Made by a program: the position numbers and the translations under genes. A stretch of DNA of 64,000 bases, from positions 116,374,001 to 116,438,000 of the forward strand of contig OZ024745.1 of NCBI GenBank assembly GCA_964016885.1, in the 5' to 3' direction. Positions 58,704 through 60,544 of this stretch are shown here, in pieces. The DNA is from Eledone cirrhosa. Lineage: Eukaryota. How positions within the stretch are numbered: the stretch's first letter is position 1; the number at the start of each line of letters is the position of its first letter. The notes beneath the pieces are model-generated. The model saw only the letters and a list, made by a program, of their open reading frames with translations, was not told the origin of the DNA and did not search any database.

Positions 58704-59811
58704 TAAGCTCTGTTGCTTACATAGAGCACTCTTTTTTCCTGGACTTTTCCGATGGAATTACTTCATTCACACACATATATATATATATATATATATATAT
58801 ATATATATATATATATATATATATAATCTTTCTAATGCAGAGGGAAATAAAAGTCATACGTTGCCAAATAATGTTTGAAAGTCGTAATTGAAATGATATA
58901 CTGTCAACGTTGATTTACTATTATATCGCATTTTTATCCGGAGTTTTACCTTATTCTGTACTTTACACTACTACACTTTGTTTTTCATGATTTTCGTGAA
59001 TAATTGTGATATTAATATTCGGCTATTTATTGCGTCCTAAAGAGAATAAGCTATACAAACATATCTAACAATATGATATAATATTCTATTGAACGATAAA
59101 TAATCAATATATTTACAGTGGTTCCTACAATAGTATTGTTATAAACCAATCGTGTTTGGCTAAATAGAAATGGGAAGTTCGCCTCATTTATATCATAGGT
59201 TCAATCACTGACTATATGAAATCTATCTGTTAACGCATCTTGTGGTAGTATAAAATATGTTTCAAATATATCACCGAAAAAAATATATATGTATATATAT
59301 ATATATATATATATATATATATGTGTGTGTGTATATATATATATTTATATATATATATATATATATATATATATATATATATATATATATATATATATAT
59401 ATATATATATATATATATATATATGTGTGTGTGTGTGCGTGTGTGTGTGTATATATATATTTATATATATATATATATATATATATATATATATATATAT
59501 ATATAAATATATATATATATATATATATATATATATATATATATATATATATATATATATATATATAAATATATATATATATATATATATATATATATAT
59601 ATATATATATATATATATATATATATATGTATATATATAAAATGTAATCTGAGTTTTGCGAATATTAATAATTGTTTCTACTTTTGGCACAAGGCCATCA
59701 ATTACCCAGGACATTACTGGCATTCGTTTGCAATTATGCAAACAAGCCTCATTTTTAAAGCCATGTCAGTAGAACGAACCATTCATTTTTGCTCTTGTTG
59801 GCATGTAAACA

Positions 59812-59861
59812 GAACTGCAGACACTAATGTTTCTGGGTATCACCCTTCATCAGTACAGTTC
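59812..59861 (-). ncRNA. Type I hammerhead ribozyme (GUC)
   Basis: gaactgta-CTGATGA-a gggt gat accc a-GAAA-cattagt-GTC-tgcagttc. Confidence 0.85.
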
Positions 59862-60245
59862 ACTGTTCAGCGGCCAACTCTCAGAGCTAGTGAAAATATA
59901 TGCTATTTTCAAACATATAGAGTGACTGATCGGCATATTAGCAGACTGGCTGATAAGTCAGATCTGCATATTAGCACATCGACTGATCAGCCAGATTTAC
60001 ATGTCACCAGACTGACTGGTCAGCTTCCTGTATACGAGAGATAAATGGCCGGCTTTGTCACATTCAAAATAACTTTTTAAAACAATTTTCGCCCTACATG
60101 GCTGAATACAATAAATGTAATCTGAGTTTTACGAATATTAATAATAACATTCGATTAGTTTGCAATTATGCAAACAAGCCTCATTTTTAAAGCCATGTCA
60201 GTAGAATGAACCCTTCTTTCTTGCTCTTGCGTTGGCATATAAACA

Positions 60246-60295
60246 GAACTGCATACACTAATGTTTCTGGGTATCACCCTTCATCAGTACAGTTC
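60246..60295 (-). ncRNA. Type I hammerhead ribozyme (GUA)
   Basis: Identical to 59812-59861 except that the cleavage triplet is GUA. Confidence 0.85.
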
Positions 60296-60544
60296 ACTGT
60301 TCACCTGCCAACTGTCAAGGCTAGTGAAAATATATGCTAATTGCATAATATCTATATATACAAATGGAAGTTCAGTAGAATCGAACCTCCTGCTGCGGCC
60401 AAGCTAACGAATGTAATCCGGAATGTGCAGCTAATCACTAATATATATACCTATATATATATATATATGTATATATATATATATATATATATATATATAT
60501 ATATATATATATATATATATATATATATATATATATATATATAT

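Follow-up and report, generated by a model that had tools for sequence, protein, structure and literature searches.

An aged hammerhead tandem in Eledone cirrhosa, probably one copy of a dispersed protein-free repeat

An earlier note on the window (the whole stretch of 64,000 nucleotides analysed here) had described two near-perfect hammerhead ribozymes lying in tandem on the minus strand, just downstream of a PLE, and had proposed either another retrozyme, from which a 434-nt and possibly circular monomer could be released, or a tandem terminal repeat of a PLE. The locus thus raises the question of what kind of element it belongs to, how that element was inserted, and whether this copy can still act. 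Our analysis indicates that the tandem is probably an aged and inactive copy of a dispersed, protein-free hammerhead repeat of 439 bases, i.e. a non-LTR retrozyme, whose insertion is likely the work of the reverse transcriptase and endonuclease encoded by a PLE (Penelope-like element).

Anatomy of the locus

The insertion and its surroundings are organised as follows, in the direction of the minus strand (names beginning with L denote genomic loci that were fetched for comparison).

60546 to 62840, minus strand: broken PLE with RT-like and GIY-YIG-like frames, a separate element ending in a (TA)n run at 60451-60545
60648 to 60677, minus strand: small hammerhead of this neighbouring PLE
60346 to 60450, unstranded: unrelated 105-nt repeat remnant separating the insertion from the TA run of the PLE; window 8941-9002, L152 and L156 are ~80% similar to it
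59640 to 60339, minus strand: whole insertion, single-armed and 5'-truncated, ~1.55 units, from consensus ~352 through two ribozymes to a short 3' end
60325 to 60337, minus strand: TATA-like box of putative function, 5' of ribozyme 1 and kept in both sister families (B and C)
60232 to 60311, minus strand: first hammerhead (hammerhead 1) including its extended stem I (GUA site; core 60254-60287; stem I formed by 60288-60295 with 60246-60253)
59820 to 60253, minus strand: cut-to-cut monomer, 434 nt, 38% GC
60086 to 60126, minus strand: internal copy of the two 3' end points of the family (short end 60113-60126; ~35-nt tail giving the long end 60086-60112)
59928 to 60026, minus strand: three decayed 33-nt repeats, putative promoter role
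59891 to 59903, minus strand: TATA-like box 5' of ribozyme 2
59798 to 59877, minus strand: second hammerhead (hammerhead 2) including its extended stem I (GUC site; core 59820-59853)
59670 to 59721, minus strand: 3' fragment of a SINE-like, abundant repeat within the second unit
59640 to 59653, minus strand: short-type 3' end of the insertion
59280 to 59639, unstranded: target microsatellite, (TA)n/(CA)n, adjoining the 3' end of the insertion

Both hammerheads are where they had been reported, with CUGAUGA cores starting at 60287 and 59853 and predicted cuts after 60254 (GUA) and after 59820 (GUC), 434 nt apart. All the stems described earlier are present: stem I counts 8 bp including one G·U and, past a GU bulge, reaches ~20-22 bp by way of aaca/uguu and uuggc/gccaa, stem II (gggu/accc, 4 bp) carries a loop 2 of 3 nt, and stem III is a 10-nt self-complementary palindrome, G·U included. 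When the window was dinucleotide-shuffled 100 times, no shuffle contained a motif with stem I of at least 6 and stem III of at least 3, and the folding z-scores of the two hammerheads are -5.7 and -4.4. The description as near-perfect cannot be kept, since an extra unpaired A flanks stem II on each side, so that an A·A mismatch separates this stem from the core, and since the minimum-energy fold is predicted to bury the core by pairing its CUGAUG with CAUUAG of stem III. With tertiary contacts left out, this blocked ground state is predicted ~6 kcal/mol below the active fold, and a double hammerhead, predicted in the same way, gains 3 kcal/mol over a pair of single ones, yet stays ~9 above the ground state. 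No gathering-score match to Rfam was obtained anywhere in the window.

The topology is of type I, whose canonical form has a tertiary contact between loop 1 and loop 2, and the layout is not LTR-internal as in plant LTR retrozymes, which carry type III hammerheads in their LTRs together with a PBS and a PPT. The minimal PLE hammerhead described by Cervera and de la Pena 2014 (PMC4209133) has a helix I of 4-5 bp, a helix II of 7-8 bp, an extra nucleotide and a palindromic helix III; here helix I has 8 bp, extending to ~22, and helix II has 4 bp, and the extra nucleotide before 10.1, the G10.1-C11.1 pair and the palindromic helix III are all present.

This copy appears old and dead. It is 92% identical to the family consensus, the lowest value among 27 monomers (mean 95.7%), and the GUA of hammerhead 1 is a private change, GUC being found in 165 of 172 family copies. 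The two repeats were said to be closer in the core than in the flanks, which is true of the counts (1/50 positions differing in the core, 11/178 overall) but stays at chance level (P=0.18), so that the locus copy gives no sign of selection. Perfect octamers (ATGCAAAT), two of which occur in the consensus (247, 313), are nowhere intact in the copy, and the octamer-bearing stretch is missing 5' of ribozyme 1, so that release of a 434-nt monomer would presumably need read-through from outside. Given these losses and the predicted self-blocked fold, such a release is unlikely, and so is a 434-nt circle from this locus. No target-site duplication is readable, the ends of the insertion lying in microsatellites.

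The PLE noted upstream on the same strand is indeed there, its end 200 nt from the tandem, and the 3' end of its family is also found across a TA run from the unit in L019, L069, L166 and L174. That the tandem is the terminal repeat of this PLE is nevertheless already contradicted and hardly tenable: the PLE has a different ribozyme of its own (at 60677), ends at 60546 like its further copies, which stop at the same point in TA runs, and has a 3' end that, scoring 20 against the unit where shuffles average 22, is not homologous to it. Its TA run and the unrelated remnant separate it from the tandem, and in L166 and L174 PLE and unit meet tail to tail, which a shared TA target accounts for. The element was identified from motifs and from alignment to Pfam-supported PLE pieces of other loci, a Pfam search of its five frames giving nothing at cut-off; it may resemble the Hydra clade. 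Further PLE-like fragments (GIY-YIG-like or linker) lie at 3136-3867 (plus strand), 9847-10290 (minus) and 12004-12660 (plus). The unit is also unrelated, as had been stated, to the hammerhead family near 30 kb (local score 24, shuffle mean 26). That family occupies window 30000-31800 on both strands with a period of ~310 nt and also occurs in L020, L036/37, L063, L068, L070, L104, L149 and L159.

A dispersed family without its own proteins

In the 3.0 Gb genome, exact matches number 948 for a 38-nt core and 1410 for a 34-nt stretch, from which, at a divergence of 4.5%, a family of ~5,500-6,000 copies can be estimated. A genome search with the dimer of this locus returned 3738 candidates, and the other copies among 40 that were scored are 85-90% identical. 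The consensus, 439 nt long and numbered from the first base after the cut, was built from 27 cut-to-cut monomers; units in dimers measure 434-445 nt (432 in one) with 38% GC, and the longest ATG ORF of the consensus has 77 aa. Copies were then characterised at 151 loci, representing most of the first 100 places, in order of position, listed for each search pattern on contig C1, minus six duplicates. The near-identical pairs L036/L037, L093/L094 and L118/L119 are apparently segmental duplications, and one member of each was left out of the 151.

The main arm holds one complete ribozyme at 126 of these loci, two at 14, none at 11 and three at 0, and 72 of the 151 are two-armed, their arms inverted head to head; 5' starts are variable. 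The 3' ends are short (consensus 132-153) at 83 loci, long (159-190) at 37 and of other kinds at 31, many of the last being broken by a SINE-like insert; they mostly run into (TA)n, and the short and long end points are ~35 nt apart. A short end is paired with a long one in 45 of 46 classifiable two-armed loci (P=1e-12), and in 48 of 50 in an overlapping set. Ends at the cut site were found in 0 of 86 copies, though the search pattern could catch them. All three common stem I variants among 173 ribozyme copies keep the pairing, which indicates that the hammerhead fold mattered, and was selected, in the source copies. Selection on the core after insertion was not detected, divergence being 4.5% in the core, 4.4-4.5% in most of the flanks and 3.6% in the promoter-like stretch, nor were scars of A-to-G editing (A>G 1.15% vs T>C 1.28%, P=0.28).

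Some further features of the copies are worth recording. On the RNA strand of 231 arms, G>A (3.44%) exceeds C>T (2.70%; P=0.0016), CpG excluded and shared variants included. A SINE-like repeat is inserted at consensus ~105-126 in 27 of 151 loci, with a common 3' junction and varied 5' junctions; because it occurs twice or in inverted arms at some loci, both repeated insertion and co-mobilisation seem to take place. ARAGORN found no tRNA in four loci, three of which carry the SINE-like insert in full. Loci such as L045 and L076 contain additional copies of the 33-nt octamer-bearing repeat, and short (TTAGGG)n runs adjoin the unit in the 3' flank of L050 and at the 5' junction of L072.

The family has the testable characters of a metazoan non-LTR retrozyme, namely a type I hammerhead in each unit, a short, low-GC, non-coding tandem and high, dispersed copy number, with no RT of its own found at the 151 loci, which bears out the suggestion of another retrozyme. 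In non-LTR retrozymes a target-site duplication, when present, is longer than 4 bp. The family likewise has the marks of PLE-driven insertion, with 5' truncation, partial tandems, an inverted 5' arm and a 30-40-bp tail at one end only.

Two related families occur in the same window.

13366 to 13720, plus strand: sister family B, with an inverted piece near 13099-13148; also at L156:709-937
14725, plus strand, and 20472 and 20041, minus strand: sister family C hammerheads, two of them 431 nt apart

Their homology to the unit is reflected in scores of 106 (B) and 63 (C), against shuffle maxima of 42-43. Family B has the layout of the studied unit, including the A·A-flanked stem II, and the core of its window copy is mutated; family C, also present in L071, L078, L105, L120, L138 and L146, has a U·U-flanked stem II and a CUAG stem III. 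All three families have the ribozyme, and before it an octamer-like motif followed after ~40 nt by a TATA-like box; the core nucleotides are all intact in the consensus of the studied family and in its sisters. Motif likeness suggests a promoter within the unit, formed by the octamer and the TATA-like box; snRNA-type promoters are one source of this reading.

The nature of the PLE partner was explored at the 151 loci, where tblastn with 16-17 PLE protein pieces against 1.1-1.5 kb of flanks detected no sense ORF joined to the unit, although a distant clade could escape such a search. Attachment of the unit to a PLE ORF elsewhere, which the earlier note had asked to be checked, was thus not observed at these loci, and the arrangement of an ordinary pLTR, or of an autonomous PLE with the unit as 3' UTR of an RT and GIY-YIG ORF, is found at none of them. 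Six PLE fragments lie upstream in sense orientation, and all five that were viewed, the sixth being L069, have a 3' end and TA run of their own. A profile of families A, B and C, run on a first set of the fetched loci, gave no ORF-linked copy, and no terminus shared with an autonomous PLE was found in the fetched loci, the neighbouring PLE being ruled out. Since the fetched loci offer no autonomous partner, mobilisation by a PLE is deduced from the footprints. PLE pieces abutting or near three 5' junctions were considered as partners and rejected, as they belong to three different families and have no unit-like terminus. At L159:1580-3600 and L160:2010-2980, PLE RT/EN pieces stand head to head with the 5' junction with no microsatellite between, so that either the unit went into old PLEs or its second arm was copied from PLE RNA. 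L161:1737-3530 (plus strand) carries an unbroken PLE frame of 598 aa with RVT_1 and GIY-YIG matches and a hammerhead-like motif downstream, and represents a young family.

A rare autonomous PLE whose pseudo-LTR (3' UTR) is the unit, and whose 5'-truncated partial tandems are the copies, would agree with the uniformly PLE-like insertion footprints, and many retrozyme families of Xenopus are reported to match PLE termini (10.64898/2026.07.22.740005). One family C copy also has 520 nt of unique sequence joined directly 5' of its ribozyme (window 20520-21040, minus strand), possibly the relic of a longer parent element. This stretch is single-copy in a genome search, however, and gave no RT or GIY-YIG signal with Pfam and a local GIY-YIG profile, both of which were also silent on an IY..YIG-like motif across a frameshift in it, a candidate that was dropped. 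At the 151 loci, what lies upstream of the ribozyme is again the unit, through its 3' end and tail, with no ORF found, and among the matches listed the only shared junction flank is the SINE. We consider an autonomous PLE of this kind quite improbable, and retain the protein-free repeat.

Possible traces of the RNA template in copy ends

When the tandem repeats of one locus are compared, their subfamily alleles agree at 349 of 438 sites, 244 being expected, and upstream and downstream repeats show no fixed differences, a few loci looking like switches; both repeats are thus usually of one lineage. The points at which arms stop depend on the pass: arms end in consensus 371-400 in 12 of 166 cases on the first pass and in 7 of 16 on the second (P=3e-4, bins chosen post hoc), and over 331-436 the second pass stops ~3.7 times as often as the first (P=3e-5) and 2.2 times as often as the second-pass baseline (P=0.01), again with post-hoc bins and 16 arms. 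These stops fit a linear RNA that would start 15-30 nt past the TATA-like box better than a circle copied at a constant rate. A purely linear template of 1.5 units is insufficient, since eight arms pass upstream of the putative start (a ninth, in L076, is a repeat-expansion artefact), as does the locus copy with its beginning at ~352, and L201 spans more than two units. Judged from these arms, a longer template must exist at times.

In the classical retrozyme cycle, the RNA would be cut into 439-nt monomers and ligated into circles, and these would be the main template of the PLE reverse transcriptase, copied for more than one lap; it departs from our preferred reading in the template alone. 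The alleles shared between repeats of a locus, the arms passing the putative start, the length of L201 and the lack of copies ending at the cut site all suit it, the monomer folds stably (z -5.8) with its ribozyme predicted to be blocked in the circle, and retrozyme circles have been shown in coral, mussel and axolotl (PMC7229834). The excess of second-pass stops weighs against it, although a stall rate rising in the second lap could still explain them, and so do the want of three-ribozyme arms in the 151 loci and the 5' junctions at the cut site, which require free linear ends. Circles as the main template are a somewhat unlikely alternative to the mainly linear one.

The number of 5' junctions increases at the scissile bond and is still high immediately beyond it. 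Junctions were counted as places with 32 intact bases preceded by three non-consensus bases, giving 18 matches at the cut, 16 of them true, and 31 matches one base off (last C kept), where 16 of 20 inspected are junctions; among these 16, one is a core deletion and two come from a single locus. Control positions gave raw match counts of 0 at -39, 6 at -4, 17 at +5 and 9 at +56, intact stretches being about equally frequent at test and control positions. In seven of the inspected one-base-off junctions the mirror GAAC precedes TGCAGTTC, forming a 4-nt fold-back, and 19 of the 31 matches end in AAC, against 4 matches for the same fold-back at another TGCA (shorter pattern). A long fold-back palindrome gave 0 matches at the control TGCA, the one site where it was sought. 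The cluster and its fold-back hint at hammerhead cleavage in vivo, as cDNA running off a cut 5' end and then folding back would leave such a pile-up.

The same pile-up could come from a stall in the strong stem I, since with 17 matches at +5 the excess is wider than one base. In a rival reading the ribozyme is a catalytically dead relic, retained as a structured RNA signal only, with the reverse transcriptase stalling in the 22-bp stem. Junctions as frequent at +5 as at +1, the greater predicted stability of the blocked fold and the A·A at the foot of stem II all favour this reading, and eight of nine Xenopus dimers are described as uncleaved in vitro (10.64898/2026.07.22.740005). Core nucleotides intact across consensus and sister families, a fold-back placed exactly at the scissile bond, and the drop in junction counts just upstream of it argue in the other direction, and a dead relic seems to us unlikely compared with a ribozyme that is partly active.

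Relation to known elements and a possible cycle

The family shares with the metazoan non-LTR retrozymes of Cervera and de la Pena 2020 (PMC7229834) and Li, Clavereau and Pollet 2026 (10.64898/2026.07.22.740005) a non-coding unit of 150-450 bp with GC <50% that carries a single type I hammerhead, a copy number in the thousands, the occurrence of both monomers and dimers, and co-existence with PLEs. The axolotl HHR_Amex2, as described there, also has a mismatch at the base of stem II, U·U instead of the A·A found here. The family differs from them in showing no long arrays, the 151 loci having at most two ribozymes per arm; in its 8-bp first stem I segment and its A·A mismatch; and in its core, which is predicted to be self-blocked here, whereas most animal retrozyme circles are predicted to leave it free. 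Expression and circles are reported for them, while in this family the lengths of the arms point rather to a linear template.

PLEs leave as footprints truncated copies, partial tandems, an inverted copy next to the main one, a tail of 30-40 bp at one end, and insertion into microsatellites (Craig et al. 2021, PMC8557442; Schostak et al. 2008, PMC2377424), and the family has all of these in common with PLE pLTRs. Like pLTR hammerheads (PMC4209133), it has the extra nucleotide before G10.1-C11.1 and the palindromic helix III; unlike them it has no ORF attached, a long stem I and a second extra A after stem II. Penelope transcripts start in the upstream repeat, and a partial tandem is needed (PMC2377424), and the putative start of the family has the same position, with an octamer and a TATA-like motif in contrast to the TATA-less internal promoter described for Drosophila Penelope. 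Non-autonomous Chlamys PLE derivatives (such as MRC1; PMC8557442) are also ORF-less, with pLTRs and head-to-tail copies moved by PLE enzymes. They come from green algae, where Chlamys elements are described as mostly without canonical hammerheads, and usually share their 3' ends with a known autonomous family, none being found for the studied one.

Schistosome Sm-alpha and newt satellite 2 are hammerhead repeats that carry a promoter, transcription of each copy being driven from the one upstream of it. The latter differs from the family in that its units lie in satellite arrays (PMC6765202).

On this basis, a cycle can be sketched. Source copies would be transcribed from the octamer and TATA-like promoter within the unit, starting ~50-60 nt 5' of the ribozyme. 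The ribozyme would be slow, self-blocked as a monomer and helped by pairing between the palindromic stem III of two copies, and because of this slowness both uncut and cut RNAs would be copied. Where a TA run is nicked, the enzyme would use both strands as primers, beginning at the two fixed points that lie 140-180 nt past the cut site and copying towards the 5' end. The usual template would be linear and ~1.5 units long, and rarer, longer ones (a circle, a multimer or a template jump) would restore the upstream promoter.

We tentatively propose, as one possible reading, that the genomic ends are a fossil record of this RNA: an off-switch retrozyme, held by pairing between core and stem III and freed by dimerisation, may be partly cut in vivo and spread mainly as a linear, promoter-started transcript of 1.5 units, copied by a Penelope enzyme from both strands of TA breaks, with circles or jumps serving only to restore the promoter. 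It would predict that the RNA begins near consensus 375-390, that cutting leaves a 5'-OH, and that cleavage depends on dimers. Mobilisation of animal retrozymes from circular RNA by PLE enzymes is presented in PMC7229834 as a proposal, not as shown, and evidence for hammerhead function in PLEs in vivo is noted as lacking in the accounts of PMC7229834, PMC4209133 and PMC8557442. The single locus is in itself ordinary. The family to which it belongs comprises thousands of neutrally decaying copies, from which start points, cut ends and template length may be read in DNA, and if the proposal is true it would provide genomic evidence that the hammerhead of a Penelope-dependent element cleaves in vivo, and would speak against an obligatory circular template.
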